Assembly: GCA_048939995.1 (NCBI GenBank)
Contig: JBHLOY010000002.1
Coordinates: 192,001 to 256,000, forward strand
Direction of reading: 5' to 3'
Length of the DNA stretch: 64,000 bases
Source: Promethearchaeota archaeon
Lineage (GTDB): Archaea > Asgardarchaeota > Lokiarchaeia > Sigyniarchaeales > SOKP01
The notes under the pieces are model-generated. The model did no database searches and was not told the DNA's origin. It saw only the letters and a list, made by a program, of their open reading frames with translations. Positions 26,945 to 57,467 of the stretch are shown piece by piece. The translations under genes were made by a program, and so were the position numbers. The first letter of the stretch is position 1. Each line of letters opens with the position of its first letter.

Positions 26945-27949
26945 TTAATAATTATTTTTTAAATCTAATTCCAAAAAAAGTCCATTTGAATTATTAAATA
27001 AAAGATTGAAGTTACATTCAGTAAGATAATCATAAGATTTTAAATAATAAACATTTAGTACTGATGCCGGAGAATGATCAAATCCTTCAACCCCATCGAG
27101 AAGCCGAGGAAAACCAAGATCATTTGGATTGTAATATAATATAAAATATGCACCAACATCTAGGTCATCATCTTCATACTTAAAGTGAATATTTCCAATT
27201 TTATGGGAAATAATCCCTGAAATATTAGCTTTCATGTTATTATGTTGAAATATATCAATAAATATGTCACCCTCCCTAGTAGAAAGGAATAAAGAAATAT
27301 TTTGATTAAGTTGTAAGTTATAGGACTTAAAAAATAAATCTCCCTCATCTTGAATTATTCCTGTGATATTACCTTTTAAAATACAATATGAAAAATCAAA
27401 TTGAATATCACCTTTATAAAGATTAACTATTATATTCTCCACAGAAATGCCAAACGGAACGATTATCTGAGTATCTCCTTGAACTCTAACTCTAATATCT
27501 ATATCACAAATCACATTTGCACTGAGAAAAATTAAGATTTGAATGACTTCAAGCAAGGATAATACCTCTATTAGGCTTAATTCTGGCTTGATTCTCATTG
27601 TAAAATTTACATACTCACTTGTATTTTGCCAATTAAAATCAAAATAGTCTAAATATGATTTTCCTGCTAAGCCTGAACCAATCATTTCAATATTTATATC
27701 TAATTTCGCATAATAATTAACTGGATTTACAATGTATTCTATTTCAACATCTCCTATGTCAATATCAATATTTAGTTCTTCCATATTTGAGGAACTGCTA
27801 GGATTATAAAAATATTGTAAAGTTTTATTGATATTACCGGATGTCGCAAGATTTGTTGAGAGAATGACGATAGGTAAGGAAAAAATGATGCTGAAGCTAA
27901 ATATAATCCCTAAAATGATAACTCTAATAGATTTATTTCGCATCATCAA
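26945..27949 (-). CDS. membrane-anchored DUF4097-like surface protein
   Basis: N-terminal TM; ELNIDIDIGDVEIEY and GD/GN beta repeats; paralog of 31685, 42418 and 10214. Confidence 0.75.
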   Translation of the reverse strand: MMMRNKSIRVIILGIIFSFSIIFSLPIVILSTNLATSGNINKTLQYFYNPSSSSNMEELNIDIDIGDVEIEYIVNPVNYYAKLDINIEMIGSGLAGKSYLDYFDFNWQNTSEYVNFTMRIKPELSLIEVLSLLEVIQILIFLSANVICDIDIRVRVQGDTQIIVPFGISVENIIVNLYKGDIQFDFSYCILKGNITGIIQDEGDLFFKSYNLQLNQNISLFLSTREGDIFIDIFQHNNMKANISGIISHKIGNIHFKYEDDDLDVGAYFILYYNPNDLGFPRLLDGVEGFDHSPASVLNVYYLKSYDYLTECNFNLLFNNSNGLFLELDLKNNY

Positions 27950-28055: not shown

Positions 28056-28080
28056 TTCGAATTTTGGGTGAAGTCTCGAA
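28056..28080 (+). promoter_or_regulatory. 25-bp palindromic operator, copy A
   Basis: ttcgaattttgggtgaagtctcgaa, followed by gtcaaatct. Confidence 0.7.
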
Positions 28081-28153
28081 GTCAAATCTTTGATTTTGCA
28101 TTAAAGGCTAGCTTTTCTATAAGAGATAACTAGCTGGTTTTGGGTGCAAAAAA

Positions 28154-28193
28154 TTCGGACTTTGTGTGAAGTTTCGAAGCTAATTCTAAAAAT
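28154..28193 (+). promoter_or_regulatory. operator copy B plus TCTAAAAAT box
   Basis: ttcggactttgtgtgaagtttcgaa-gctaat-tctaaaaat, upstream of 28296. Confidence 0.8.
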
Positions 28194-28295
28194 TAATTGG
28201 TAGGATAAATTCTAATTGGCACTAATTTAACTACTGAAATTGTTGCCTTAACCAATTTAAATAAAAAAACAATCACAGAAAAAAGGTTTAAAAAA

Positions 28296-29609
28296 ATGAA
28301 AATGAAAACAAAATCAGGTATACTTATTGGAATTTTTACAATAGCAATGATAATCGGAGTTTTTACTTTGATAATTGGACCAGTCCGCGCTGATTCACCT
28401 ACTTTTATAGTATTTCCATCAGGTGGAGATGATACCGCAAACATCCAAACAGCATTCAATGATGCTATTGCAGCAGGACCAGGAAGCATAGTTCAATTGA
28501 CTTCAGGACAATTTTACACGAACGCTATTTTTGTTGAAAATTTCTATGGTACGTTTAAGGGGGCAGGCAAGCACAGTACTAAAATTGATGTACTTAAAGG
28601 TTTGGATAATACATTAGAGGGAGTAGTTGGTCCTGGTGGACCTTATTTATTTACGTTTGTAGGAGGAGATGTACACATCTCGGATTTAACTTTTGATATT
28701 ACACCTTATATGCCTGCTGAACCATGGGAAGATCCAGAATACCCATCATACGATTTAATATCAATTATCTTACTAACTGGCGAAACTAATTCCCGAATCG
28801 AAAATGTCAAATATATTGGACATGAAGGTACACTAGTTAATCCATTAGGAATAGGCTTTAATGTTAGAGTAGGAGTTGAATATCACTTTGGAACGGGAAA
28901 ACACATTATTACTAAATGTGACTTTGATTCGATATGGGGGGCTATTTCAGCATATGGATTATCTAATGTTGAAATGAAAATTTCATCAAATACAATTAAA
29001 GGAGGTAACTTCGGAGTAATTAATATGGATAATATCAATTCAAAATTTGAGATTACTTATAATGAAATAGAGACAATGTTTATATATGGCATATGGGCAT
29101 GGCAAGCAGGAATTATAGTTCCACCTACCCCTTCCCAGTGGAAAATAACTCATAATACTATAAGAGTGTCAAATCTTGCGGATGGTATAGGTTTAATGGA
29201 TGATCTACCTGAGAAATCACTTGAAGCAGTTGTCTCCCATAATAAGATTACTTTAGATAATACAATGTGGGGAGGCATTTGGACAGCGGGGATGCGGGAT
29301 ACTTTTATCTCTAACAATATCATTCGCGGTACAGGAGACTATGGCATTGCATGTGCTTTTCCCGAAAACAACTTATTGCTTGGAAACAATGTCCAAAATG
29401 TGGATGCCTCATGGGCTCCCATTGTCTTGATTTATGCAAGCGAATGTGTAATAGTTGGAGGATCTACAAAAACAAATGTCCTGGATATTGCTGGTTCCAA
29501 TAATATCATAGTTGGGATGAATAATATACAAGGCAATTCACCAGGCCCAGAAATCCAAGAAGCAATGGAACAAAAGAGGGAACTTATTCATTTGTTCCCG
29601 AAATTTTAA
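28296..29609 (+). CDS. secreted right-handed beta-helix (pectin-lyase/NosD-like) protein
   Basis: Signal peptide ending VRA-D, GGDDTANIQTAF motif, repeated ISxNxI / HNxI / GI turns. Confidence 0.8.
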   Translation: MKMKTKSGILIGIFTIAMIIGVFTLIIGPVRADSPTFIVFPSGGDDTANIQTAFNDAIAAGPGSIVQLTSGQFYTNAIFVENFYGTFKGAGKHSTKIDVLKGLDNTLEGVVGPGGPYLFTFVGGDVHISDLTFDITPYMPAEPWEDPEYPSYDLISIILLTGETNSRIENVKYIGHEGTLVNPLGIGFNVRVGVEYHFGTGKHIITKCDFDSIWGAISAYGLSNVEMKISSNTIKGGNFGVINMDNINSKFEITYNEIETMFIYGIWAWQAGIIVPPTPSQWKITHNTIRVSNLADGIGLMDDLPEKSLEAVVSHNKITLDNTMWGGIWTAGMRDTFISNNIIRGTGDYGIACAFPENNLLLGNNVQNVDASWAPIVLIYASECVIVGGSTKTNVLDIAGSNNIIVGMNNIQGNSPGPEIQEAMEQKRELIHLFPKF

Positions 29610-29643
29610 CAAAACCTATTTCCTTTTCCATATATTTGTAATA

Positions 29644-29703
29644 AAATAGAAAATGGAGGATAAATAAAAGCTTAATCCTCCAATTCTATTTCTTTTTTTT
29701 TTT
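29644..29703 (+). terminator. conserved 3' hairpin plus T-tract, copy 1
   Basis: aaatagaa-aa-tggaggat...atcctcca-a-ttctattt followed by T11. Confidence 0.7.
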
Positions 29704-29855
29704 AATTAATCAGGCTATAATGAGGGGTTTTGGAAGTTTTAATCAATAGGCGATCAAAAGTTTTAATTACGAAACTATCTAATTATGATTTTATAAGAAT
29801 ATGAAATCTGATAGATCGATTTTATTACTTAAAAATAGATTAACTGAAAATTAAA

Positions 29856-31637
29856 ATGTCTTTAGACAATAAAGGTTCAAAGAAAAAAATTCCTAAAAAG
29901 AAAGTTAGAGTAATAAAGAAAAAACCAGTTGCAGTTTTTGGAATAGTTGCTGCTGTGGCCATAGCAGGGATTATTGGTGGAATAACTATCTTTTTATATT
30001 CACCAGAGGAAAAAATTATATATATCTCATTCACAGATTTAGCTGCAGCTCAATCTGGTATTGATCCTCTTATAACCTGGGTTCCAGCTGATTATGAGAT
30101 ACTTAATCAAGTTGCTGAAGGTTTATTTACCCATGATTCAGCTAATCAACAATCCCAAATAATTCATAACCTTGCTATAAATCATTGGAGGAATGATAAT
30201 GCTACAGAATATACCTTTGAACTGAGACAAGGGGTTCAGTTCCATGATGGAACACTATTTAATGCAGCAGTGGTTCAATGGAATATTGATAGAATATACA
30301 CTTTAATTGAAAATGGTAAAATGCACTTTACTTCAAAACAGTTCTGGTTATTTTCCGATGGGACATGGATTATAAACCGTACTGAAATTATTAATAATTA
30401 TAATATAAAGTTTGTATTAAACAAACCTTATATCCCTCTTACTGCATTATTAGCTTCTGTTAATTCATTTATGGTTTCACCTACCTCAACACCTCAAAAC
30501 GATTTTATTCCACTAAACGGAACATTAATCGGAACTGGTCCTTATTTGTATGACGTTTGGAATAAGGATTATAATTTAGTACTCTCTTCCAATCCAAATT
30601 ACTGGGGCGGTAAACCTCAAATTGATAAGTTGATTTTCAAAGATTATGTAACTCCAGAAGATAAATTTGAAGCATTGATTTCTGGAGAACTTTCAATGTT
30701 AAGTGGTTACAATGAAATACACTCTCATGGTCATTATTGGGATTCCCTTGGAATTTATGATAATGATGTCCTGAATACTTTTATGAATGATCCTGATATT
30801 ATAGTAGAAGAAGGTCCTTCAGCGACCTATTTTGAATACTTACTGATGAACAATGAATTAATTAATGCAACTATGAGAAAAGCAATCTCTTACGCTTGTA
30901 ATTATTCAGCTTATATAGATAAGTGGTTAAGCGGTCATGGAATGAGACTTAGATCTCCTATTCCGGAAGGAATTTTATACTCAAACTCAACCGGTATTGA
31001 TGTTCCCTATTATAATATTTCTATAGCGCGACAAACTTTAAAAGAAGTGAATTGGAACGGATTAGCTAGTGCTTTACCTGCTGATGATAACATTTCTGCA
31101 GGTAATGAATGGGAACAATTGATAATTGACGGAACACCTTTAGCTACTTATAATTTTACATACATTAGTGGTATGCTAAATGGTATAGTTTTTTTAAATA
31201 TAACAAAAGAAAATCTTAGACAAATTGGAGTAAAAGTAGAAGCTGTTCCACTTTCTCCTGGAGAATATATACAAATTTTTTGGGAAACACCTCCTTATCA
31301 CTTAAATATGATTGAACTTTCACATATGGGGTATATTACAAGATTTAATGATCCTTGTAGTATTATCAACATTTTATGTTCAAATAAAGCTTTAGATTTA
31401 AATTATTGTCAAATAAATGATACTTTAGTTCAGCAATGGATGGAAGAGGCTCTAGGCGAAACCAATGAGGCTATAAGAGAACAGTTATATTATCAAATTC
31501 AAAAGCGTTTAATTGAAGAGGTTTTCCCGATGTGTTATCTGATTGCAAGAAATTGTTTTAAAATTTATAGATCCAATTTAAAAGACTTTGAGTTTAACCA
31601 TTTTAATCCTGTTTACAAAGATATCTACTTTATTTGA
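29856..31637 (+). CDS. family-5 solute-binding protein; copy 2
   Basis: LRQGVQFHDGT, IGTGPY, NPNYWG, MRKAISYA. Confidence 0.9.
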   Translation: MSLDNKGSKKKIPKKKVRVIKKKPVAVFGIVAAVAIAGIIGGITIFLYSPEEKIIYISFTDLAAAQSGIDPLITWVPADYEILNQVAEGLFTHDSANQQSQIIHNLAINHWRNDNATEYTFELRQGVQFHDGTLFNAAVVQWNIDRIYTLIENGKMHFTSKQFWLFSDGTWIINRTEIINNYNIKFVLNKPYIPLTALLASVNSFMVSPTSTPQNDFIPLNGTLIGTGPYLYDVWNKDYNLVLSSNPNYWGGKPQIDKLIFKDYVTPEDKFEALISGELSMLSGYNEIHSHGHYWDSLGIYDNDVLNTFMNDPDIIVEEGPSATYFEYLLMNNELINATMRKAISYACNYSAYIDKWLSGHGMRLRSPIPEGILYSNSTGIDVPYYNISIARQTLKEVNWNGLASALPADDNISAGNEWEQLIIDGTPLATYNFTYISGMLNGIVFLNITKENLRQIGVKVEAVPLSPGEYIQIFWETPPYHLNMIELSHMGYITRFNDPCSIINILCSNKALDLNYCQINDTLVQQWMEEALGETNEAIREQLYYQIQKRLIEEVFPMCYLIARNCFKIYRSNLKDFEFNHFNPVYKDIYFI

Positions 31638-31684
31638 CATATCCTCTGAATTAAAAGGCTTAGCAAATAAAATAAGAGACTTAT

Positions 31685-32686
31685 TTAATAATTATGGAGT
31701 TCTAGTTCTTCATAAATACCAATTGGAAAATTAAACATCCAATGATAATTATATAATGAGGGATAATCATCAGAAGTTATATGATAAACATCTGTCCCGT
31801 TTACTGCGATCACATTGTATGCAAAACCTATAAGCTCAGCAATTTTTTGATTAATAGCATAATCATCTGGGTGTACATGTAATATAAAGTATGCTCCAAC
31901 CTCAGCGGTATTGTCTCTATAAGTCAATAGATAATTACCCGTAATTATTGTGATATTCCCAGTTACATTAGCATTAGTAGCTTTATTCTGAGAGATTTCA
32001 ATATATACATCACCATCATTAGTATAAAGGGACCAATTGCAATTTTGCGTGTATTCCACATCATAACTTCTTACTTTTATATCCCCTGTGTTTTGAATAA
32101 TTCCAGAAATATTTCCTTCTAGAATACAATAAAAGAAGTCATATTGAATATTACCTTTCATCAAATTGGTTATGATATTTCCAACTGAGACCCCAAGAGG
32201 AATAGTTGCTTTAGAGCTTCCTCTAATATCAACCATAGTATTGATATCATAAAGTACATCAGCTTTAAGTGCTACGATTATATCAACATTTTTTATCAAA
32301 GATAAAATATCACCTTGCTTTATGCCTTTTTTTAACTCCATTGTAAAATTTACAATAGTGCTTGTATTTTGCCAAAGGATATCGAAATAATCTATATGCG
32401 ATTTTCCAACTAAACCTCGACCAATCATTTCAATATTTATATCAATTTTTGCACAATAACTTATTGGATCTGTTATATATTCAATTTCAACTTCTCCTAT
32501 ATCGATATCAATATTCAGTTCATTCAAAAATGAAGGTGAGCTAGAATTGTAATAGAATTGAAGAGATTCATCTATTCTGCCATAAGATGAGAGACTTATT
32601 GAAAAAATAACAATGGGCGTCGAAAAAATGATAATTAAACTGAATATAAGCATTATAATGATAATTCTAATATCCTTCCTTACCAT
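31685..32686 (-). CDS. membrane-anchored DUF4097-like surface protein
   Basis: ELNIDIDIGEVEIEY; close paralog of 26945. Confidence 0.75.
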   Translation of the reverse strand: MVRKDIRIIIIMLIFSLIIIFSTPIVIFSISLSSYGRIDESLQFYYNSSSPSFLNELNIDIDIGEVEIEYITDPISYCAKIDINIEMIGRGLVGKSHIDYFDILWQNTSTIVNFTMELKKGIKQGDILSLIKNVDIIVALKADVLYDINTMVDIRGSSKATIPLGVSVGNIITNLMKGNIQYDFFYCILEGNISGIIQNTGDIKVRSYDVEYTQNCNWSLYTNDGDVYIEISQNKATNANVTGNITIITGNYLLTYRDNTAEVGAYFILHVHPDDYAINQKIAELIGFAYNVIAVNGTDVYHITSDDYPSLYNYHWMFNFPIGIYEELELHNY

Positions 32687-32802
32687 TGTTAAATCTTTCC
32701 AAGAGTAGATAACAAAATTACAAATAATGATATAGGTGAGAATACTATTTAAACCAATCCGTAAAATGCCTTGCTAAAGCGGGTTTTAGTATACTTATAA
32801 TA

Positions 32803-32843
32803 TTCGAACTTTGAGCGAAGTTTAGAAGCTATTTCTAAAAATA
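32803..32843 (+). promoter_or_regulatory. operator copy C plus TCTAAAAATA box
   Basis: ttcgaactttgagcgaagtttagaa-gctatt-tctaaaaata. Confidence 0.8.
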
Positions 32844-33047
32844 GATACCATGTTTAGTTAAACCATTGTCTAAAGTTTTTGTGTGTTACAATGTGTTTCT
32901 TTGTTTTGCTAAAATATTGTAAAAGACCCTACCAATTAATCATTCTTTTTTTTTAGTATTTTTTCTTGAGCATAATTTTTTTATATACATAACCCTTATA
33001 AGCTAATTATTAGAATACTATTATTGTGGTGATTCCACCCAATTCTC

Positions 33048-34049
33048 TTGATTAATTTTGATCTTATTGAACGTTTTTTTTCGTCTATTGCAATAGTAGT
33101 AATAATTTTTTGTTTTATATTTTATTTTTCTCAAGGGCGTAAGAAAGAGGTTCTACATGAAAAAATTTTGATGTATAGTTTTGCAAGTTTTTGGCTCAGT
33201 ATTTCTTTAGCAAGAATATTTTATTATTTTTCTGACATTTTTTTAGAGGGAACTTACTCAGGTGATTTAAGCACACTTATTGAATCATATGATCTCTTAA
33301 ATTATATTATTCTTTACTTTTATCTATATTCTCATATATATATTTTAATAAGTATTATAGCATTAAGTGTTATGTTTATATGGTTTTCAATAAAGTCAAA
33401 AAAAGAATTTCAGCTAGTTTCCTCAGTAGTAGCCATTGGATTTACAATATTTTTAATAGGATGGGTTTTTGAAACGACGGCATTAAAGCAATTAAACCTT
33501 ATACCTCCAGCATTACCATCTATTTTTATAATAGTAGGAACCATAATTGCAACGATACCTCTAATTGTGGATATTGAGTTTTTTTCAAGCAAATTAATTA
33601 ATTGGTTAGTTTTAATTTCAATTGTTTTGATTTTACTTTTTTTTAGTTTAACCATTTTTACGAATCTCCCATTAGTACTTTTAAGTCAGATTATAATCTT
33701 AATTTCAACCTCTGTTTTAATTATGGTGATCATTTTTGTGGCATTTTACATAATCAAGAGAATTAAAGTATCAGAAGTTCAGGAAATAGTTCCAAAGGAG
33801 GAACTTAAAGATTTTATAAAGACTTTTATGAAGCCTGCTACCATTACAATCGAGGAAATTCAATTATATAAAGAGAAAGGATTATGTTTGGTGTGTAAGA
33901 GTAAAGTCACACGATTAAATTATGTCTGTCCCAAATGCTATGCATTATATTGTTTAAAATGCTCAAGAGCATTAACTAATTTAGAAAATAGTTGTTGGGT
34001 CTGTGAAACCCCCTTTGATGAATCTAAACCTATGAAAAAGTCTAAATAG
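33048..34049 (+). CDS. multi-pass membrane protein with C-terminal C8 RING-like zinc finger (candidate E3)
   Basis: About 7 hydrophobic segments; CLVC-x10-CPKC-x4-CLKC-x10-CWVC-ETPF. Confidence 0.72.
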   Translation: MINFDLIERFFSSIAIVVIIFCFIFYFSQGRKKEVLHEKILMYSFASFWLSISLARIFYYFSDIFLEGTYSGDLSTLIESYDLLNYIILYFYLYSHIYILISIIALSVMFIWFSIKSKKEFQLVSSVVAIGFTIFLIGWVFETTALKQLNLIPPALPSIFIIVGTIIATIPLIVDIEFFSSKLINWLVLISIVLILLFFSLTIFTNLPLVLLSQIIILISTSVLIMVIIFVAFYIIKRIKVSEVQEIVPKEELKDFIKTFMKPATITIEEIQLYKEKGLCLVCKSKVTRLNYVCPKCYALYCLKCSRALTNLENSCWVCETPFDESKPMKKSK

Positions 34050-34074
34050 AATAATTAATAGGAAGGTAAAGCTT

Positions 34075-34284
34075 ATGATTGAATTATTAATATTGCTGCT
34101 TCTAATATTTTTAGCAATCCCTTATATTATATTGTCTTTTATAACATTCTGGGTATATAAAGATGCAAAAAAAAGAGATATGAATGTATTTGCTTGGATT
34201 TTGGTAATTTGGTTAATACCATTCTTTATTGGGTTGGTCATTTATTTAAAGATTAGAATACAATATTCTGTCACGAGATTATAA
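34075..34284 (+). CDS. small PLDc_N-like 2-TM membrane protein
   Basis: WVYKDAKKR....W......P..G...YL pattern. Confidence 0.75.
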   Translation: MIELLILLLLIFLAIPYIILSFITFWVYKDAKKRDMNVFAWILVIWLIPFFIGLVIYLKIRIQYSVTRL

Positions 34285-34303
34285 TATTTTCATAATTTCT
34301 AAT

Positions 34304-34450
34304 TTACTTACATTCTTTGGAATCTTGTTCAATAAAAAATTTTAAGACTTTATCATTTGGAGGGCGATGTTCTGGAATTTTTTTTGCTTCAATTTTCAAA
34401 AATCTTAACTCTTCACTATTGTAATTATGGGTTTTGCTTTTTTTAGTCAC
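34304..34450 (-). CDS. possible small protein (48 aa)
   Basis: Hand translation from GTG: MTKKSKTHNYNSEELRFLKIEAKKIPEHRPPNDKVLKFFIEQDSKECK*. Confidence 0.35.
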   Translation of the reverse strand: MTKKSKTHNYNSEELRFLKIEAKKIPEHRPPNDKVLKFFIEQDSKECK

Positions 34451-34549
34451 CTGATTTCACTCAAAATTTCCGTTAAATTATACTTATATTAATTAATGTT
34501 AATAACTATAATAAAATTAATTACATTTATGTAAGCAATATTAATTTCG

Positions 34550-35566
34550 ATGTTAAAGCCTCCTCAAATCTTATTTACCGGAGAAAATGGTGTTGGTAAA
34601 ACAACTATCTTGAATTTATTTCCAGAAGATATTATTTTAGAATTAGACGATAACTTTAATGAAATTTTTCAAAAGCAAGTTAATATTACTGGATTCAAAG
34701 GTATAGAACATTGTATTTTAAGAGAAATTGATTTAAGAGAATTAGTAGACAATTTTTTTTCTTTTCAAAAACTACTACAGGCTCTTGATATCATTCTCAT
34801 TGTAACTGATTCAACTGAACGAAATATTAAATATACTTATAATTTATTTTCTGAATTGAAATATAAATTACCTAAAATTGATTTTTATATAATTGCTAAT
34901 TTTCAAGACAGAAAGTCAATTTCAATGCCCATAGAAAAAATTGAATCTATATTAAAAGAGAAGGTTTTTGGATATTCGGCCATCCAAGAGGATTCAAAAG
35001 ATTCTATGACTGAAATTATTAAAGAGATTTTAGAAATTTCAATTATTAAAAAACAAGGAAAAAAGCTTTCATTTGATAAAATTGATTACAATACAATTTG
35101 GTCAGACATCGAAGAAGCAAGATTGTTGGAAAAGAAAGGAGACCATTATGCGGCATCAAAAAAATTCTCAATTGCTGGATCTAAATTTAAAATACTAAAT
35201 TCAAATGAGGAAAAAGAAGAATTTAAAGCGTTATACAATTTATGTAAGGCTTGGGAGTGTATAGAATTAGCTGAAGAATATGAGGATGTTTCGAAGTTTG
35301 CTGAAGCTGTGAAATTTTTTGATCAAGCAATTGAATCTCTATATGATGAGAAATTAAAATTTTTAGTATCCGCTAATTTAGCACATTGTGAAGCTTTAAA
35401 ATTAGGAATGGAGTCAGATACATCAGATCAACTACATATTAAAGAAAAATTATATTTAGAAATAATCGATTTAATTAACAAAGCAGTTAATTTATATAAA
35501 AGAGGAGGTTTTGAAAAAGAAGCGGAATTTGCTTTAACTACCTTGAATAAATTAAAGAGCCTTTAA
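34550..35566 (+). CDS. degenerate Ras/Arf-like small GTPase fused to TPR-like helical domain
   Basis: GENGVGKTT P-loop, VTDST, ANFQD (G4-like), YSA (G5-like); no DxxG; C-terminal helical repeats. Confidence 0.75.
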   Translation: MLKPPQILFTGENGVGKTTILNLFPEDIILELDDNFNEIFQKQVNITGFKGIEHCILREIDLRELVDNFFSFQKLLQALDIILIVTDSTERNIKYTYNLFSELKYKLPKIDFYIIANFQDRKSISMPIEKIESILKEKVFGYSAIQEDSKDSMTEIIKEILEISIIKKQGKKLSFDKIDYNTIWSDIEEARLLEKKGDHYAASKKFSIAGSKFKILNSNEEKEEFKALYNLCKAWECIELAEEYEDVSKFAEAVKFFDQAIESLYDEKLKFLVSANLAHCEALKLGMESDTSDQLHIKEKLYLEIIDLINKAVNLYKRGGFEKEAEFALTTLNKLKSL

Positions 35567-35619
35567 TTGAGTAAATTTAAAATTTTAGTAAAATATCTTA
35601 AAACATTACAGGAATCAAA

Positions 35620-36114
35620 TTGACGTTATTCGAAAAAGATTTTCTATTTCCAGTATACATCGATAAAAATACTTTAAATCATATTGATGAATTATGCAAA
35701 AATTCTGATAGAGAACTTTTTGGCTATTTAATTGGTTTAATTTTAAAATGGAAAAAGAATAAATATATTATTATAAAAGAACAGATTTATATTAAAAATA
35801 CAGTTAGAAGTAATAAATTTAACACATCCCAAATTGAAGGAACTGCTGGAAAATACGAACAGGAATTTCAAAAGTTGAAACATAGTATGAGGAACGAGAA
35901 TTTACGAGTTGTAGGATGGTGGCATTCCCATATCAATTTAGGGTGCTTCTTATCCTTAACTGATATTCATACACAAGAATATTTTTTTCCTGAACCTTAC
36001 CAAGTTGCATTAGTAGTTGATCCTATTCGAGAGGAATACAAATTTTTTACATTAGATGCAGGCTCAAAAAAGAAATACAAAACGCTAAGTTATGCTATTA
36101 TATCTTCAACTTAA
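35620..36114 (+). CDS. JAB1/MPN/Mov34 (Rpn11-like) metalloisopeptidase
   Basis: ELFGYLIG, VVGWWHSH...FLSLTD, VALVVDP JAMM motif. Confidence 0.92.
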   Translation: MTLFEKDFLFPVYIDKNTLNHIDELCKNSDRELFGYLIGLILKWKKNKYIIIKEQIYIKNTVRSNKFNTSQIEGTAGKYEQEFQKLKHSMRNENLRVVGWWHSHINLGCFLSLTDIHTQEYFFPEPYQVALVVDPIREEYKFFTLDAGSKKKYKTLSYAIISST

Positions 36115-36131
36115 CAATTTAGTTTATATCT

Positions 36132-37013
36132 ATGCGTAAGAAAGAAAATCAAGGAATTAAAGTGATTGGAACGGATTCCATAGATTCAGATAGATTCGAT
36201 CGCCAAAAGAGAATTATTGGTTGGGATCAAACTATTATTTCTAATGCGACAATTATGGTAATTGGTGCTGGAGCTACTGGAAATGAAGTTATAAAAAATT
36301 TAGCTTTAGTCGGAGTTGGAAAGATATTTTTAATTGATTATGATTTCATTGAAACTTCAAATTTAAGTCGTTGTGTGTTGTTTAACCCTAAAGTAGCAAA
36401 GGATAAAGAATACAAAGCAGATGTTATTAAAGATGTGTGTAGAGACTTAAATCCTGATGTCGAAGTTGTTTCAATTAAAAAAGACTTAAATTCAATAGAT
36501 AAAACTCTTTATAGCAAGTGTGATGTAATATGTTCTTGCTTAGATAATCTTGAAGCACGGATAGAAGCTAACAATTATGCATATTATAATCGAATTGCTT
36601 TTGTTGATTCTGGGATCGACGAATTTTTTGGTTCAGTTCAAGCAGTATATTCAGAAGTTGAAAATTCAGCTTGTTTGCAATGCGGTATATCAGAAAAGGA
36701 TTTGGATTTAATGTGGAAAAAATTTTCTTGCACTGGAGAGGAATTAAGGTCTGAAGAAGGTGAAACCACAAATAAAATAGCAACAATCATTACGACTACT
36801 TCAATAATAAGCGGTATTCAATCTCAGCAGGTTTTAAAATTTTTACTTGGAATTAAATATTATAAGGAAGATAAAAAATGGAATCCTTATATTGGAGCAC
36901 CATTGGTTGGTAAGCAATTAATTTATAATGGCCTAACAAACAGTTTCAACATTATTGATAAAATAAAAGATCCAAATTGTTGGACTTGCTCATACAAAAA
37001 ATCTAAGATTTAA
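36132..37013 (+). CDS. ubiquitin-like activating enzyme E1 (ThiF/UBA family)
   Basis: RFDRQ, GAGATG, DYDFIETSNLSR, CLDN..AR, CLQC, FSC (catalytic Cys), CWTC. Confidence 0.93.
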   Translation: MRKKENQGIKVIGTDSIDSDRFDRQKRIIGWDQTIISNATIMVIGAGATGNEVIKNLALVGVGKIFLIDYDFIETSNLSRCVLFNPKVAKDKEYKADVIKDVCRDLNPDVEVVSIKKDLNSIDKTLYSKCDVICSCLDNLEARIEANNYAYYNRIAFVDSGIDEFFGSVQAVYSEVENSACLQCGISEKDLDLMWKKFSCTGEELRSEEGETTNKIATIITTTSIISGIQSQQVLKFLLGIKYYKEDKKWNPYIGAPLVGKQLIYNGLTNSFNIIDKIKDPNCWTCSYKKSKI

Positions 37014-37030
37014 ATTAGGAGGAAATATGG

Positions 37031-37558
37031 ATGCCAGAATTACCCTTTGAGATATGGAAAGAAAGAGTAAATAATGAGATAAAGATCCTAAGAAATATTA
37101 GCCTCATTGAAAATAAATCTATAGCATGGCATGATAATAGTGTAGAATTATGGATTAATTTAAGTGCCTTTGGATTCGTTAAAAGAGAAATTGAAGGAGT
37201 TATCAATGTAAAACCTCAGATGAATCACCGAATTCTCATTAAAATAAATAGATCCTTTCCATATCCAGGAGGGATTGATTTTGCTTGGTATTCAGAAATA
37301 TTTCACCCAAATATCCATCCCATTGAATTAAAAGGATTGAAAACTATAGGCACAGGTTATATTTGTTTAAATATTTTAAGACAATGGACAAAATTATCAG
37401 ATTTGGAAACTACAGTTAAATCCCTTGAAAAATTAGTAGAGAATCCCAATCCAGAGGATCCTCTTCAATATGATATTTGTATTGAAGCTGCTGAATTCTT
37501 TAAAAGAAATTCAATTCAAGAACTTAAAAAGATTTATAAAAAAGAAAATTATATTTAA
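37031..37558 (+). CDS. ubiquitin-conjugating enzyme E2
   Basis: FPY..., IFHPNI, GYICLNIL..W, L..L...PNP.DPL. Confidence 0.92.
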   Translation: MPELPFEIWKERVNNEIKILRNISLIENKSIAWHDNSVELWINLSAFGFVKREIEGVINVKPQMNHRILIKINRSFPYPGGIDFAWYSEIFHPNIHPIELKGLKTIGTGYICLNILRQWTKLSDLETTVKSLEKLVENPNPEDPLQYDICIEAAEFFKRNSIQELKKIYKKENYI

Positions 37559-37824
37559 GAATTAAAAAACAAACCTCCAATAACTTTTGTCCATAACATC
37601 AAAATATCATATTCTTTTAACCCAAATTTATGAATTGCCTCCCTAATTGATATTGCATTCGGTAATTCCTTTTCCTTATACACTAAAGCATAAGAACGTT
37701 GTTCTGAACTTATAAAACCCATATGTTTAACAACAATTTCTATAATACGCTCTATTATATGATGTTCCTTTACATCTAACTTTATTCTTTTGCCTGTTCT
37801 GGTATCTTCTATTGATAATTTCAT
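37555..37824 (-). CDS. ubiquitin-like protein with GG and 5-residue C-terminal propeptide
   Basis: beta-grasp pattern, GLKEYDIL.L, ends TKVIGG-LFFNS; convergent with E2. Confidence 0.85.
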   Translation of the reverse strand: MKLSIEDTRTGKRIKLDVKEHHIIERIIEIVVKHMGFISSEQRSYALVYKEKELPNAISIREAIHKFGLKEYDILMLWTKVIGGLFFNS

Positions 37825-37875
37825 TTTTTTTTTTTAATTTTTCTTTTAAAGACAAATAAATTTATTCAACTAATC

Positions 37876-37915
37876 ATTTTTAGATTTGAGTTCGAAACTT
37901 TTCACAAAGTTCGAA
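37876..37915 (-). promoter_or_regulatory. operator copy D plus TCTAAAAAT box upstream of the Ubl gene
   Basis: Minus strand reads ttcgaactttgtgaaaagtttcgaa-ctcaaa-tctaaaaat, ending 52 nt before the Ubl ATG. Confidence 0.82.
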
Positions 37916-37922
37916 TTAGAGA

Positions 37923-39218
37923 TTATTCTTGTTCTTTCAACTTTTTATTAATTTCATCCAATATTTTATATTTTGGAAAATCTTTTAAAATTGAGGTTAA
38001 AATGGTTTTTTCTCTTTTTATTCTGTTATAATCCTCTAATTTTAGGTTAATTATATTTTGGAAAGCTAAACCCTTAAACTTGTCTACTAAATCATCTGAA
38101 ATTGTCTCTTTTTGATATTTCCCGAATAAGAAATTGATGTAATCTGGTACAAATTTCTTTAGAGGTGATTTTATATTTCTATCAAAGAGTTTATCAGAAA
38201 TATCATTTAAAATATTGTCTAATAAATCTACGGTTTGTGAATTTCTTTCTTCTTTAGAAATATCAGGTTGTAATCTTTTGAGATAACTAAACTTTAGAAT
38301 GTTCTCATCTATAATTAAATGCAACATTTTATCAATTTTGTCATCCTCTCGAAAATAATATACCACTTCATCATTAAGTCTTAAATTGAAAAATTTTGTA
38401 TCATATAAATCCTCTTCAGTAATCTTTTGCGTACAAAAAGTAAGTGTAGCTAGTTTAATATTATATTTAAGAGAAAAATTTTCTTGTGAAATATATTCTG
38501 GATATCGACTTGGATGATTTATAGAAAGAAATAATAATATTTTATAAAAATCTTCTTTTGATGGGAGTATATTCTCAATGAAGCTATAATTCAAATGATT
38601 GATTAAATCTAGAAATAAAATTTCAATTTGGCTATCTTCAACATTCTGCTCTTTAAGAAACCTTCTGACGTTTTCTTTGATACTTTCTATTTTATCTATT
38701 TCTTCTTCTAAAACTGATTGATAATCTAATTGGTATCTTTTCAGCATTTTATTATATCGTTCCTCACCTATTCTAGTGATTCTGTATTCCATGTTTTCAC
38801 TATCAACAAAACCTTTTTTCATTAAAAGATTTAAATATTTTGATAGAGAATTATGATTGAGAGAAAGAGGTTTTTCAATAAAATCTGACCACTTTAAATA
38901 GTCGTTATTAAATAACATCCACAAGATGATATGAGCATAATTTCTCTTGTTTAAAATGATCTCTGGAGGATATCTTAATTTTCTCTCAAATGAATCTTTA
39001 AATTTTAAATCTATATATCTTTTTTTACCTTCAGCAGTAGCTAGATAAACTCCTTTACTCTTTTTCTCAACATATCCGTTTGAAATTAATAATTTCATGT
39101 ATTTAGACAATGTAGCTAAGCTGATTTCTAACGGCTCATCTAAAAAGACAGACCAATTACATTCCTCATTATTATTAAGCATCCAGAGGATTATATATTC
39201 AAAATCTTTCTTCTCCAT
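37923..39218 (-). CDS. tandem winged-helix DNA-binding protein (candidate regulator)
   Basis: Two repeats of IILWML.NN...WS.F...PL.....LSKY...L...G.V......Y..T..G. Confidence 0.8.
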   Translation of the reverse strand: MEKKDFEYIILWMLNNNEECNWSVFLDEPLEISLATLSKYMKLLISNGYVEKKSKGVYLATAEGKKRYIDLKFKDSFERKLRYPPEIILNKRNYAHIILWMLFNNDYLKWSDFIEKPLSLNHNSLSKYLNLLMKKGFVDSENMEYRITRIGEERYNKMLKRYQLDYQSVLEEEIDKIESIKENVRRFLKEQNVEDSQIEILFLDLINHLNYSFIENILPSKEDFYKILLFLSINHPSRYPEYISQENFSLKYNIKLATLTFCTQKITEEDLYDTKFFNLRLNDEVVYYFREDDKIDKMLHLIIDENILKFSYLKRLQPDISKEERNSQTVDLLDNILNDISDKLFDRNIKSPLKKFVPDYINFLFGKYQKETISDDLVDKFKGLAFQNIINLKLEDYNRIKREKTILTSILKDFPKYKILDEINKKLKEQE

Positions 39219-39427
39219 GCCTGATGGGTTAATTAAATCTTCTGGAGGATAATTGATTTTTTTAGCACAGATTTTATTTATACACCTATTATTATTTCTT
39301 TATTTTAATTTTCAATTAAATTTTGAGTAATCTCGCTTATATATAAGATATAACAAATATGTTTAAAAAATTTCATTTAAAAATAAAAATCCTCATATTC
39401 AATATTTTTTATTTAAATAACTCAAAC

Positions 39428-39452
39428 TTCGGATTATATGCAAAATTCCGAA
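39428..39452. promoter_or_regulatory. operator variant, copy E'
   Basis: ttcgga-N13-tccgaa, same 25-bp length, between the regulator and 39596. Confidence 0.55.
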
Positions 39453-39481
39453 CTGTTTCTTGGAATAATAAGTGGAAGATA

Positions 39482-39522
39482 TTCTAAGTTCGCTAAAGGT
39501 TTCGAACTTAAATCTAAAAATA
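39482..39522 (+). promoter_or_regulatory. operator copy E plus TCTAAAAATA box
   Basis: ttctaagttcgctaaaggtttcgaa-cttaaa-tctaaaaata. Confidence 0.72.
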
Positions 39523-39595
39523 AAGATTAAGCATAATAACCAATTGACACAAATTTGCCAAAAAAGAAAAAGAAAAAAAAAAAAGATGAAAAAAA

Positions 39596-40366
39596 ATGAA
39601 TAGAAATAACCTATCTAAATTGATTCTCTTAACCTTTCTGATGTTCGCTATTTTCAGTTTTATACCAGTAGTTGCAGCAAGCTCAGGTAATGCAACCAAA
39701 AGACCATTAGATGATTGGTTAGATCCGAATTACGCTGCTTTCCCGTGGGGCGAAGAAAATTGGGCTTTTTATGACTTTTGGAGCCCTTATTCTGGTTTAG
39801 TGACGAAGATGGGGTTACCTTGGCCTTTGGCTGGCTTCGGCCCATTTGTTAACGACATGATATACGAAAATAGTTTAGTAATAGGAGATACTATAATTGA
39901 TGGTAATATTAAAGAACGAGCATTAAACGATGGAACTGCTTTAATAACCCTGCAATTAAATGTGAAAAACGCTCCATGTTCAGTTTATGATTACTTCGAT
40001 TTTATTCTTTACTGTCTTGGGGCTGCTCCTTACCCTCAAGCCGTATTGGGAGATGGAATTGATGGGTATATCGATTATACCGTGTTAGTTAAATTTTATA
40101 TCCCTGAACCTGGAGCAGAGCTACCAAATGTATTTGATATGTGGTATTATTATGTCTCGATTAATATTCACGGTATTGGTTATGGAACATTAACAGAACG
40201 TGCAGTTGAGCTCGGTTTTGCCGAAACTGCTGGTGCACCAGGAATGGTAGAACTTCATCACATAGCCCTTTTTAAGCCTGATTTCAAAGAAACTCATCCT
40301 AAATATGATCCATTTTATGGTGATTTATGGCCAGTTGACTCCGTTGAAGTTTATGAATTGAGTTAG
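39596..40366 (+). CDS. secreted protein of unknown family (paralog of 43681)
   Basis: Signal peptide; RPLDDW, NVKNAP, HGxGxGT, HPxY, LWxVD shared with 43681. Confidence 0.8.
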   Translation: MNRNNLSKLILLTFLMFAIFSFIPVVAASSGNATKRPLDDWLDPNYAAFPWGEENWAFYDFWSPYSGLVTKMGLPWPLAGFGPFVNDMIYENSLVIGDTIIDGNIKERALNDGTALITLQLNVKNAPCSVYDYFDFILYCLGAAPYPQAVLGDGIDGYIDYTVLVKFYIPEPGAELPNVFDMWYYYVSINIHGIGYGTLTERAVELGFAETAGAPGMVELHHIALFKPDFKETHPKYDPFYGDLWPVDSVEVYELS

Positions 40367-40422
40367 AAGCAGATTAATGGAGAGAAATACCAAGTGAGGG
40401 TTGAAATTTTTAAATAATAATA

Positions 40423-40508
40423 TAGAACAAGGAGGAAAAAGATTAGAATAATGGCTTCTCGAATGACCACATCCAAACCACTATTCCTCCATTCTTTTTT
40501 TTTTTTTT
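40423..40508 (+). terminator. conserved 3' hairpin plus T-tract, copy 2
   Basis: tagaa-caa-ggaggaa...ttcctcc-a-ttct then long T run. Confidence 0.62.
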
Positions 40509-40643
40509 AAAATATTCTTTTTAATTTTTGCTTCTTTTTAGATTCTGATAAAATTATATCTTAAATCTGATTATCATAGACAGAAAAGTTTAAAAATAGA
40601 ATCAACTAATCTTCAAGTTATACATAAATGTGAATTCTATTAA

Positions 40644-42356
40644 ATGATTAAAATGATAGAAAAAGCTTCTTCTAAAAAAAGATTTCCTAATATCAAAGAA
40701 TTCAAGAAAATAATCATAGTTGGAGGGTCAATAATAAGCTTAGCGATAGTTGGGATTATAAGTGGAATTATTATTATGGGAGATATCCCGCAAGGAGGTA
40801 TTCTTAAAGTAGGTATAACTAAACCTATTGGAGAAATTGACCCTCTTATGTATAGCTTTTCTTCAGAAGAAATAGTAATTAATCATGTTACCGAGACGTT
40901 ATTTGATAATATTTATATAGGTGGTAAATCTCAAACTCTTCCTCATCTAGCATTAGATGGAAATTGGAGTTCGGACTACCTAAATTTCACATGCACACTT
41001 AGAAAGAATGTCATGTTCCATGACGGAACGCCATTTAATGCTGCAGCCGTTAAATGGAACTTCGATAGAATTCCTCAAATTATCGATCCATCACTTCCAG
41101 ATTGGTATTGGTGGGCTTACCTATTTCTTTTACCAGATGGGCGCTGGATTGTAAATAAAACTCTAGTCTTAGATTCCCATATTGTAAAATTTGTTTTAAA
41201 TGATGTTTTTGTACCTTTTCGAGAATTATTAACTCATAGTACTACAAGTATTTTATCACCATCATCAACCCCTGCGGATAAACCCCTAAATATACACATT
41301 GATAATTTAGTTGGAACCGGTCCTTTTATATATGATGGTTATGAACCTAATGTCAATATGTCATTATCTCCTAATCAGAATTACTGGGGAGCAAAACCTA
41401 AAATTGATGAGGTAATTTTAAAGTTTTATTCTCCAACTAATCGTACTAATCGTATTAATATTTTATGGAATGCGCTTTTAGCAGGAGAAATTCATATAGT
41501 AGACCGAGATTTTATTAAGTTTTTAATAATGTACTATCCAGACCGATCTATCGAACTCCTTAAAGGAGTTGCAGGAATTACAGTTCAACAAAAGCCTACT
41601 ATAAGCAATTATTATGTTTTTTTTTATCCTAAACTTGTTAATAGTACAATGAGAAAGGCAATATCTTATGCAATTAACTATTCTAATATACTTGAAATAG
41701 TTCCTAACTCTATAACAGCCAGATCCCCAATTCCAGAAGGTATCTCTTACTCTAACATTACTGGTATTGACATTCCTTATTATAACATTTCAAAGGCGAG
41801 ACAGATGTTAATTGACGAAGGTTGGCCTGGAACAGCGGGTTTAACGGCAAATGACAATATTACAGCAGGAAACGAATGGGAACAATTAGTAACTAATGGA
41901 TCCCCTCTTGCAATATATAATTTATCTTATTATACAGAGAATCCATACAATGAATTACCACCAATTCCTTTTCCAGAAAATCTTAAACAAATTGGAGTCA
42001 ATGTATCATGTCGATCAATTTGGAGTGGTGCTCCGTCTCAACTTGAAACATTAATGTGGATGTATGACTATAACGATCCACACACTGGTATTATGATGGA
42101 TTATCATTCAAAATGGACTTTATGGACCGACTTTAATGTTAGTGTATTAGATGAATTGATAGAAGAAGGAATTAAGGAGATAAACCCTGTTTTAAGAGAA
42201 GCGATATACTATAATATTCAAAAACTTATAATCGAGGAAATTTGTCCTGTTATATTTACTCTCTCTCCACGAAATTTAGATATATATGCATCAAATTTAA
42301 TGGACTGGCAAATTTATCCATTCAAAATAGTATTTAAAACAGTTCACTTCGTCTAA
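40644..42356 (+). CDS. family-5 solute-binding protein; copy 3
   Basis: LRKNVMFHDGTPFNA, VGTGPF, NYWG, MRKAISYA. Confidence 0.9.
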   Translation: MIKMIEKASSKKRFPNIKEFKKIIIVGGSIISLAIVGIISGIIIMGDIPQGGILKVGITKPIGEIDPLMYSFSSEEIVINHVTETLFDNIYIGGKSQTLPHLALDGNWSSDYLNFTCTLRKNVMFHDGTPFNAAAVKWNFDRIPQIIDPSLPDWYWWAYLFLLPDGRWIVNKTLVLDSHIVKFVLNDVFVPFRELLTHSTTSILSPSSTPADKPLNIHIDNLVGTGPFIYDGYEPNVNMSLSPNQNYWGAKPKIDEVILKFYSPTNRTNRINILWNALLAGEIHIVDRDFIKFLIMYYPDRSIELLKGVAGITVQQKPTISNYYVFFYPKLVNSTMRKAISYAINYSNILEIVPNSITARSPIPEGISYSNITGIDIPYYNISKARQMLIDEGWPGTAGLTANDNITAGNEWEQLVTNGSPLAIYNLSYYTENPYNELPPIPFPENLKQIGVNVSCRSIWSGAPSQLETLMWMYDYNDPHTGIMMDYHSKWTLWTDFNVSVLDELIEEGIKEINPVLREAIYYNIQKLIIEEICPVIFTLSPRNLDIYASNLMDWQIYPFKIVFKTVHFV

Positions 42357-42417
42357 TATATGCCAAGCACATTGGTCTAAAAAACCATAAAAAAATTAAA
42401 AAATTTTTAACATAAAT

Positions 42418-43467
42418 TTATTCAATATAGGGTATACTTGTCAGATCCATGTCAAAATTTCCCTCTAGGATTTCAAACCTGATATTGTAATAATACTTAA
42501 CGATGTTAAGTAGTAAATCATCTGATGTAAAATAAAAAATACCCTCATATGTAGTATGTGCAATACGATTGAAATCAAAACCCTTTACAAGCGGACAGAT
42601 CAGACCAGGAACCTGCAATACACAAGTAGGAAATCCACTTTTATCCATGAATTCCCCTCCGTAGGGAATTTCAAGCATTGCACCAATATCAGCGCTACTA
42701 TCCTCATAAAGAACAAATATCTCTCCATTATTAACTTTGAATATCCCTGTTATGTTAGCACCAATATCTCTATATTGAAGAACTTCAATATCTATATTAC
42801 CCTCTCTAATGTTTATGTCCCAACTACTATTTTGAGCATATTGTACATCATTTGACTTGAAAATTAAATTTCCATCATTTATATTTCCAATTATGTTTCC
42901 TTGAATTGAACAGTGCTCAAAATTATACAAAATATTTCCATTGGAGACGTTTGTTAATAAATCTCTAAAGGAAACGCCATAAGGAATAGTTATTTCAAAG
43001 TTTCCTTTAGTTAGATTGGTAATAATATCAAATACAATATCTTTTCTAATATTTACAACGATGCTTATTTCTTTCTTTAACCAATATAGTGGATTAAACC
43101 AATCATCTGATATTATCTCCATTCTAAAATCTACTGGAAAACTTGAATTGTTCCAAGAAATGTTTAAATAATCATTGTACGATTGACCTGCTAAATTTTC
43201 CCCAATCAAGGCAATATTTACGTCTATTAACACGTAATAATCAACTGGGGGATCAATATATCTTATTTCTACATTTCCCTCATCAGCGTTAATGTACAAC
43301 TTTTCAATAGATGCTGGTGAGCTTGGTTCATAAGTAAAAGAACAAGATTCGTAAATATGGTCATACAATGAAGACCTGAATGATAATAATTGGATTGGAA
43401 TAATTATTATAAGGGAACCCCATAAAATAACCAATATAGCTACTCCAATAACAATTTTTTTCGCCAT
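42418..43467 (-). CDS. membrane-anchored DUF4097-like surface protein
   Basis: IEKLYINADEGNVEIRY and repeated GN turns; paralog of 26945 and 31685. Confidence 0.75.
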   Translation of the reverse strand: MAKKIVIGVAILVILWGSLIIIIPIQLLSFRSSLYDHIYESCSFTYEPSSPASIEKLYINADEGNVEIRYIDPPVDYYVLIDVNIALIGENLAGQSYNDYLNISWNNSSFPVDFRMEIISDDWFNPLYWLKKEISIVVNIRKDIVFDIITNLTKGNFEITIPYGVSFRDLLTNVSNGNILYNFEHCSIQGNIIGNINDGNLIFKSNDVQYAQNSSWDINIREGNIDIEVLQYRDIGANITGIFKVNNGEIFVLYEDSSADIGAMLEIPYGGEFMDKSGFPTCVLQVPGLICPLVKGFDFNRIAHTTYEGIFYFTSDDLLLNIVKYYYNIRFEILEGNFDMDLTSIPYIE

Positions 43468-43587
43468 TTTTAAATCTATTAATTACAAACAATTAATTCT
43501 ACAATCAATTAGATAAGGTAATTATCTATTTAAATTAATCCCTCAACACTTTTTTTTTTTGACCCTAAAACAGTACAAATTTTAAAA

Positions 43588-43628
43588 TTCGAACTTTGCG
43601 CGAAGTTTCAAAGTCAAATCTAAAAATA
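43588..43628 (+). promoter_or_regulatory. operator copy F plus TCTAAAAATA box
   Basis: ttcgaactttgcgcgaagtttcaaa-gtcaaa-tctaaaaata. Confidence 0.82.
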
Positions 43629-43680: not shown

Positions 43681-44478
43681 ATGAACAAAACATATAGAGG
43701 ACTTTTATCAATAACATGTTTAGCAATTTTTGGGATTTTAATCATGGGCGCTATACCAGCAGTACAGGGAGCCTCTTCGATTCAAAGGCCACTTGATGAT
43801 TGGTTTTATGATGTCTTTGGTTTCGATATGAATTATCATGTAGGAGGTTGGGTTGATGGATATCAGGTAAGACCTCAAGGCATAGATTATGATACGACTA
43901 CTGATGAGTGGATCTATCAACCGATTTGGGAATGTACATATGATGGCTATATCCTTGATAGAGATATGCATGATGGCCGACATATGATTACAGTTAATAT
44001 TAACGTCAAAAATGCTCCAGTTATCGTTGCTCCACCTTTTGGGAGTGGAGGATACTATTGGGTCTTCCAAGGTACTATGAATTATAATTATGAATATAAA
44101 TTCATAGTAGATCTAGCAGAATGGGCTTGGTGGTTGATTTTTTTGGAATTTGATGATGATGGCTTTGATGAAAATGGAAATATCCTGTTACCTAGATGGG
44201 ATATACCTATGGTTTATGGCTCAATCTTCGGATTTGAATTCATTTCAGTGCATTTTCATGGCGAAGGAGAAGGAACAATAGTCAATTACTGGGATGAATC
44301 CTGGGTGGGAAATGGAGATCGTATTTGGGAACCAGATGAATCAGCAAAATTGAGTACCAATATGCTTGGACTTGTAAAGGATGATTTTAAACTAGATCAT
44401 CCCAATTATTGGCCCTCTGAATATTCTAGTATACCTTGGAGTGTATTATGGGCAGTTGACTTTGTAAAATTACATTAA
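43681..44478 (+). CDS. secreted protein of unknown family (paralog of 39596)
   Basis: Signal peptide; acidic and aromatic-rich; motifs shared with 39596. Confidence 0.8.
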   Translation: MNKTYRGLLSITCLAIFGILIMGAIPAVQGASSIQRPLDDWFYDVFGFDMNYHVGGWVDGYQVRPQGIDYDTTTDEWIYQPIWECTYDGYILDRDMHDGRHMITVNINVKNAPVIVAPPFGSGGYYWVFQGTMNYNYEYKFIVDLAEWAWWLIFLEFDDDGFDENGNILLPRWDIPMVYGSIFGFEFISVHFHGEGEGTIVNYWDESWVGNGDRIWEPDESAKLSTNMLGLVKDDFKLDHPNYWPSEYSSIPWSVLWAVDFVKLH

Positions 44479-46156: not shown

Positions 46157-46162
46157 ACTTTT

Positions 46163-55460: not shown

Positions 55461-55470
55461 CTTGCAAACT

Positions 55471-56352: not shown

Positions 56353-56530
56353 CTCTTAACTTATGCACATTTTTTTAAAGTTATCATAGAAATAATTATA
56401 TGAATATTATTATGAGTTCTTTGACTATTTATTATGATATAATTTAAAAATTTCCACACTATTGATTTTAGGAATAATATATTAAGAAAAAATAAAAGGT
56501 TAAATATTATATTTTATTAAAAATTTTGAA

Positions 56531-57367: not shown

Positions 57368-57467
57368 AAAAAATACGATTAAATATTAAAATCTTAAAAG
57401 ATGATTATTTGGAAAATATTTATAGTTTATATCTATTAAATAAAGATTTTAAGATTTTTTTTAGGAG

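Follow-up and report, generated by a model that had tools for sequence, protein, structure and literature searches.

A 25-bp quasi-palindrome abutting a TATA-like box as predicted operator of a small regulon of ubiquitin-like and secreted proteins in a Promethearchaeota genome

In a 64,000-nt stretch of a Promethearchaeota archaeon of the Lokiarchaeia (assembly GCA_048939995.1, contig JBHLOY010000002.1, positions 192,001 to 256,000, forward strand; this whole stretch is termed the window), an imperfect 25-bp inverted repeat recurs before the gene for a ubiquitin-like protein (Ubl) and before genes for secreted proteins. What does the repeat do there, and which protein reads it? A first-pass annotation had proposed that its copies are operators adjoining promoters, and that a gene for a tandem winged helix-turn-helix (wHTH) protein lying among them encodes the regulator. 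Our comparative analysis makes it almost certain that the repeats serve as operators in a small local regulon. We consider it highly likely that the adjacent short tandem-wHTH protein is the regulator acting at them and, granting both points, likely from the position and geometry of the sites that it activates. Regulon, adjacent regulator and activation taken jointly form the reading that we favour, with appreciably less assurance than its parts.

All seven copies were found where they had been reported (the minus-strand copy occupies 37891-37915), and TCTAAAAAT follows exactly 6 nt after five of them, at 28185, 32834, 39513 and 43619 on the plus strand and at 37884 on the minus strand. One further exact TCTAAAAAT in the window, at 54760, has no palindrome. 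With the spacer, which resembles the transcription factor B recognition element (BRE), the copies form these features:

28056-28080, plus strand: putative auxiliary operator, 98 bp 5′ of the main site, TATA position degenerate, kept in the sister genome
28154-28193, plus strand: operator (28154-28178), BRE-like spacer (28179-28184) and TATA-like box (28185-28193), serving the beta-helix gene
32803-32842, plus strand: complete operator-BRE-TATA unit with no target directly 3′
37876-37915, minus strand: Ubl unit, with operator (37915-37891), BRE-like spacer and TATA-like box (37884-37876)
39428-39452, plus strand: putative auxiliary operator without TATA, 54 bp 5′ of the main site
39482-39521, plus strand: operator with degenerate left arm, BRE-like spacer and TATA-like box, serving the 39596 gene
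43588-43627, plus strand: operator, BRE-like spacer and TATA-like box, serving the 43681 gene

A matrix was trained on 14 sites from other genomes, leaving out this genome and its closest sister. It ranked 28154, 37915, 43588, 32803, 39482 and 28056, in that order, as the top six among 7.5 million positions, with site scores of 24-50 bits versus peaks of 15-17 bits in five locally shuffled genomes. The copy at 39428 passes solely when the operator is scored by itself (rank 5). In that scoring the copy at 39482 is weak (rank 68); its score is strong only when the TATA-like box is included. Matrix scans found nothing comparable elsewhere in the 3.75-Mb assembly: the motif is not common genome-wide, its sites being restricted to 16 kb. 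A triplicated gene module contains three of the copies, and identity between copies is 52-88% in the operator and ∼22-50% in the flanks. Because the sequence outside the unit is unrelated between copies, they are not just segmental duplicates, and it is the 40-bp unit itself that is conserved.

This unit consists of the 25-bp quasi-palindrome, the 6-nt BRE-like spacer and the TATA-like TCTAAAAAT, in that order. The consensus of 57 sites reads TTCG-AACTT-N6-AAGTT-Y-CGAA, then G-C-T-A-A-A, then TCTAAAAAT. The inner part of the consensus given by the first-pass annotation was misregistered, the real inner boxes being AACTT-N6-AAGTT, half a base offset. Pairing about position 13 is confined to the outer TTCG/CGAA arms (88-100% over the 57 sites); the inner boxes have their axis at 12.5. 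Positions earlier left unspecified are partly fixed (C7 in 53/57; T8 and T19 each in 57/57), the right inner box is more variable than the left, and the centre is the most variable part of the repeat. The spacer consensus fits RNWAAW, the archaeal BRE consensus. In an operator-only scan of related genomes, all 65 sites that have the TATA word have it at +6, so that the proposed pairing of operator with TATA-like box has passed comparative tests; in 14 sites the word is missing, mostly in auxiliary copies 44-98 bp 5′ of a full unit. A bacterial sigma-70 scan gave matches at chance level, and no terminator was found. Eukaryotic heat-shock elements, whose GAA repeats are alike, were dropped as a resemblance only, with different spacing.

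Among relatives, 35 of the 154 genomes of the order contain the pattern, versus 6 hits in total for a reversed control. Matrix scores separate true sites in 25 Promethearchaeia (Loki) genomes (38-55 bits) from the rest (<20 bits), and the 10 pattern-positive genomes in the latter group were rejected as chance hits. For 56 sites a downstream gene could be considered, and 51 of these sites lie 35-145 nt 5′ of a same-strand Ubl gene (17) or signal-peptide gene (34, in five families). The site is thus carried by six unrelated target families at ∼20 loci, and the claim of a local regulon of Ubl and secreted proteins has survived comparisons that could have failed. In the window, the gene coordinates likewise bear out the statement that the units precede three secreted-protein genes, the Ubl gene and one empty slot. 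The targets are:

28296-29609, plus strand: 437-residue secreted right-handed beta-helix protein (Pfam Beta_helix, E=1e-7; N-terminal hydrophobic segment)
37555-37824, minus strand: ubiquitin-like protein with Gly-Gly at 83-84 and a 5-residue tail
39596-40366, plus strand: 256-residue secreted beta-sheet protein of an uncharacterised family (predicted local distance difference test score of the model, 92.6)
43681-44478, plus strand: 265-residue secreted protein, a distant paralogue of the 39596 protein (23%, BLASTP)

The motif lies 5′ of 10 homologues of the beta-helix protein and of 17 homologues of Ubl. For the 39596 protein, fold searches gave generic beta-sheet matches alone (best Z 5.8), which we do not take as a sign of a new fold, and an Atlas feature search gave no match. 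A target family that is represented only outside the window (L040 8515-9171 and homologues) has at its end a sorting segment that resembles Loki-CTERM (E=0.003, below cut-off).

Which gene a slot of the island contains varies between genomes, and here one slot is empty. Behind the site at 32803 there is no open reading frame (ORF) led by a Shine-Dalgarno sequence; a 21-codon ORF was rejected as having no ribosome-binding site. In a related genome (L058) a secreted-protein gene stands behind a site in the equivalent slot; the 32803 site itself is absent from the sister genome. Because the slot has no credible ORF here and holds a secreted-protein gene in the relative, the 32803 unit is probably a relic of a lost secreted-protein gene.

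The proposed regulator gene is the following:

37923-39272, minus strand: two N-terminal winged helices, a third winged-helix-like unit at ∼residues 245-290, helical C-terminus, no tetratricopeptide repeats (TPR)

Its coordinates match the annotated gene except for the start, which is probably 54 nt earlier than the ATG at 39218. That ATG is found only here and in the sister genome. At the earlier position, 18 of 18 orthologues keep ATT, ATC or ATA ∼10 nt behind GGTG, often with an in-frame stop just upstream, and paralogues have ATG there; translation therefore probably begins at a weak AUU/AUC-type codon, here the ATC at 39272 behind its GGTG ribosome-binding site. The chain ends after ∼430-450 residues and has an invariant recognition helix in its winged helices. 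Each repeat matches Sso10a/HTH_45, MarR and Lrs14-type profiles, and HTH_34 also, and the predicted fold is a winged helix; all NCBIfam scores are below cut-off. No match to an Lrp HTH plus RAM domain was found in Pfam or NCBIfam, and the protein is not of the Lrp family. The whole chain gave no solved-structure match at E≤0.001; RPC62, a weak multi-winged-helix match (E 1.5e-3, TM 0.15), was not taken as homology. In a search of 251 genomes of the phylum, the family occurs only in one family of Promethearchaeia.

What ties the operator to this protein? The scan for co-occurrence with the wHTH family that the first-pass annotation had suggested found the motif in 21 of 21 genomes with the short regulator. 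Such co-occurrence is weak by itself, because gene and motif share one island, and paralogues were used for this reason. This genome has seven longer ones, with TPR-like tails. Four TPR-fused clades have their own related 25-bp element in the divergent intergenic region, with ACTATA(T/A)AT 6 nt on; TCTAAAAAT, at the same spacing, therefore sits at the TATA position. In this genome, scans with held-out matrices place the sites of every clade next to the paralogue of that clade; on contig C38, three such sites precede three genes. Targets differ among these clades, being secreted proteins, 70-86-residue proteins or 22-30-residue peptides. In one clade, an ORF follows 44-69 nt after 41 of 42 units, in most cases behind a ribosome-binding site, versus 2.8 in shuffles, and this is independent support for the promoter reading.

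Three further comparisons bear on specificity. Where the same secreted families stand beside a TPR-type paralogue, they sit behind that clade's operator and not behind the focal one. None of 13 Ubl genes found away from the short regulator has a site. The left arm of the operator tracks the first recognition helix, with TTCGAACT in K-Y clades and TCGGAA(C/T)T in R-H/Y clades, the two K-Y clades not being sisters on the tree; this suggests a correspondence between recognition helix and left arm. The proposal that the tandem-wHTH gene encodes the regulator has thus come through the co-occurrence scan, the paralogue operators, the operator swap and the 0/13 Ubl comparison, and the neighbouring DNA-binding protein very probably docks at the repeated signal. 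The sites on both sides of the regulator gene are where they had been reported (the Ubl operator starts 7 nt past the regulator stop codon). They are no evidence of autoregulation: each of the two flanking units is oriented outwards from the gene, one serving Ubl and the other the 39596 gene.

Several observations were made on the paralogues themselves. The clade with 22-30-residue basic peptide genes (L002, L090-L117, L131, L145, L146; in this genome C37 ∼24340) often has two peptide types in tandem with separate promoters, and third-position bias and synonymous excess support coding. On contig C38 (11717, 15258, 16692), beside two TPR-type paralogues, lies a second three-site regulon of secreted-protein genes, with an extra palindrome 3′ of the TATA in a repressor-like position. 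Small Ras/Rab-like GTPase genes adjoin four of the seven paralogues here and many in relatives (contigs C37, C38, C1; L181-L200). Family-like operator and TATA units far from paralogues, at C19 89853, C11 61378, C11 145386 and C3 19346, are possible distal targets.

In the mechanism that we propose, the short tandem-wHTH protein would bind the 25-bp site as a dimer, with one winged helix contacting an outer TTCG arm and another the inner AACTT box, and would touch TFB or the TATA-binding protein (TBP) at the abutting BRE and non-consensus TATA. Transcription would start ∼21 nt after the TATA word, and the Ubl gene would be switched on jointly with whichever secreted-protein genes occupy the variable slots of the island. 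The pyrimidine-purine (YR) step frequency peaks at position 60/61 (0.54), and this peak and the ORF distances fit a start ∼25 nt from the TATA centre, as a sequence signal only. Archaeal activators bind just upstream of BRE at deviant promoters (PMC5512572), and TCTAAAAAT departs both from the TATA consensus TWTATATA of other archaea (PMC5512572) and from the ACTATA(T/A)AT of the paralogues. The word is called weak by comparison with other archaea and the paralogues because the host's own TATA/BRE consensus could not be extracted from tRNA leaders and start-anchored k-mers in this AT-rich background.

Would the same protein at the same operator rather repress, occluding the BRE until released by a signal? 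The site reaches as far as the first base of the BRE, and the auxiliary upstream sites would suit cooperative repression. The regulator has weak profile matches to MarR, ArsR and Lrs14-type proteins, many of which repress. Archaeal repressors, however, mostly overlap BRE/TATA or lie downstream (PMC5512572), with no need for exact spacing. Activation is favoured because here the spacing is fixed across five clades and the TATA word is off consensus at invariant positions (C33 in 57/57), and we regard repression as unlikely. The 40-bp unit may instead be an extended core promoter for one of seven TFB paralogues or for an unlinked factor, with the wHTH gene a passenger. This genome does have seven TFB genes and one complete TBP, the TATA word is near-invariant before unrelated genes, and a small number of related elements are found at a distance from all members of the family. 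Four motif-positive genomes also lack a detected regulator. Yet the sites fall within 16 kb of 3.75 Mb, the operator changes with the adjacent paralogue while the targets stay the same, and no other DNA-binding gene recurs in the islands, which makes a passenger role improbable. (The TFB and TBP genes, together with a frame of 431 codons encoding one TBP-like domain, are on contigs C5, C11, C17 and C19.)

If the repeats were sites of recombination or ends of elements, shuffling cassettes for secreted proteins, this would explain why slots differ between genomes and one is empty. No recombinase is encoded in the islands, however, and the only tyrosine recombinase of the genome lies on a different contig. 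Conservation is lowest at the centre of the repeat, leaving no matching crossover core, nothing is shared between the flanks, and without exception the sites face a start codon at a distance like that of a promoter. The copies are thus unlikely to mark mobile-element ends, a possibility raised by the first-pass annotation, and we give recombination very little weight. Slighter still is the chance that the repeats are RNA hairpins or accidents of a 31% GC genome. They do have dyad symmetry, but shuffles never reach the site scores, the inner positions are unpaired in the outer register with no compensatory changes, Rfam gave no match and the sites lie upstream of the predicted start.

Several points weigh against activation by the adjacent protein. 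Binding, transcripts and start sites are predictions from DNA sequence, a 25-bp dimer abutting the BRE could also block TFB, and a second YR peak at 48/49 (0.63) leaves the start-site signal soft. The genomes are kin, so their counts are not independent, and the recognition-code argument rests on five clades and is not statistical. The four genomes with true sites in which the short regulator was not detected are G075, G111, G108 and G110; among these one site is at a contig edge, one is before a truncated gene and two have no target, while the G111 target is intact. Islands L053 (G110) and L054 (G108) are collapsed, keeping operators with no target or a truncated one.

Further genes of the island place the Ubl gene in context. 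Two features are relevant here:

33048-34049, plus strand: multi-pass membrane protein with a C-terminal Cys-rich RING-like finger (zf-C3HC4_3, E=0.001, below cut-off)
34550-37558, plus strand: genes for a degenerate GTPase with helical C-terminus, JAB, E1 (ThiF) and E2 (UBC), convergent with Ubl and without operator

Ubl homologues have GG in 19/19 cases and the tail in 7; a match to TUG-UBL1 is weak (E=0.001, below cut-off). The linked genes match ThiF (6e-45), UQ_con (3e-10) and JAB (5e-11), and E1/E2 are missing from many islands that retain Ubl. The RING-like membrane gene is context and no regular target, its orthologues being mostly without a site. A convergent pair is triplicated (25157-27949, 29856-32686 and 40644-43467), encoding a membrane-anchored family-5 solute-binding-like protein and an uncharacterised membrane-anchored protein; the island has no permease genes for its solute-binding-like surface proteins. 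At 10214-11452, beside an ABC exporter, may be a fourth relative of the uncharacterised protein. Six paralogous membrane proteins with hexapeptide-repeat-like acyltransferase domains (45206-48055 and 53716-59288) flank the island in many relatives.

Archaeal ubiquitin systems, as in Caldiarchaeum subterraneum and the Asgard E1/E2/RING cascades (bioRxiv 10.1101/2023.07.25.550441), are alike in having a Gly-Gly Ubl clustered with E1, E2, JAB and a RING-like gene. Unlike in those systems, Ubl here runs convergent to the genes of the enzymes and is preceded by an operator of its own, and the island has no ESCRT genes. The literature searched described no transcriptional regulator for archaeal ubiquitin genes. 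One might imagine a circuit from membrane to gene, in which surface binding proteins and the membrane RING protein signal via Ubl conjugation to the sensor-less regulator; we think this doubtful. Equally doubtful is its finer form, in which E1/E2 would conjugate, JAB reverse and the degenerate GTPase gate, the regulator inducing secreted proteins and, as feedback, Ubl. Ubiquitin-based input is speculation because the genes for the surface proteins, the RING-like protein and the enzymes have no operator and E1/E2 are absent from many islands. If true, this circuit would be ubiquitin-controlled transcription in an Asgard archaeon.

How much of this is new? Ptr2 (M. jannaschii), TFB-RF1/PF1088 (P. 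furiosus), EarA (M. maripaludis) and the ara-box factor (Sulfolobus) (PMC5512572) are alike in a site directly 5′ of BRE, sometimes several sites, a regulator gene near or divergent from its target and, if the present TATA word is judged by other archaea, a non-consensus core promoter. The likeness to Ptr2 is positional only, since Ptr2 belongs to the Lrp/AsnC family and the focal protein does not. The present chain differs from those activators in its two or three winged helices and its 25-bp offset dyad, and its TBP/TFB recruitment is predicted. Sso10a/HTH_45, MarR and Lrs14 winged-helix proteins are alike per repeat, in profile and predicted fold, but Sso10a is a small chromatin protein, unlike the longer multi-winged-helix regulator. 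RRNPP regulators of Firmicutes combine HTH and TPR with adjacent peptide genes; similarly, TPR-fused paralogues face 22-30-residue peptide genes, and the island has oligopeptide-binding-like proteins. The focal protein, however, has neither TPR nor peptide gene, the TPR-like tails being confined to paralogues, and on the TPR tree of these the peptide types are scattered.

The architecture, a site 5′ of BRE/TATA, is standard for archaea; the regulator family and the regulon are, as predicted here, new. No description of this family or site was found in a literature search that covered few subscription papers, and no Asgard regulon or binding site was reported in the literature searched, Asgard gene regulation being almost undescribed. 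The surprise is limited by the standard architecture and by the patchy occurrence of the system within one uncultured family. Nevertheless, the proposed regulator comes with a predicted site and a set of targets, and the five pairs of paralogue and operator form a natural test of specificity. The tie between expression of a ubiquitin-like modifier and secreted proteins is a lead on the role of Asgard ubiquitin systems that are not linked to ESCRT, and the whole would be a rare case of a gene-control circuit open to testing in the archaeal group to which the closest relatives of eukaryotes belong.

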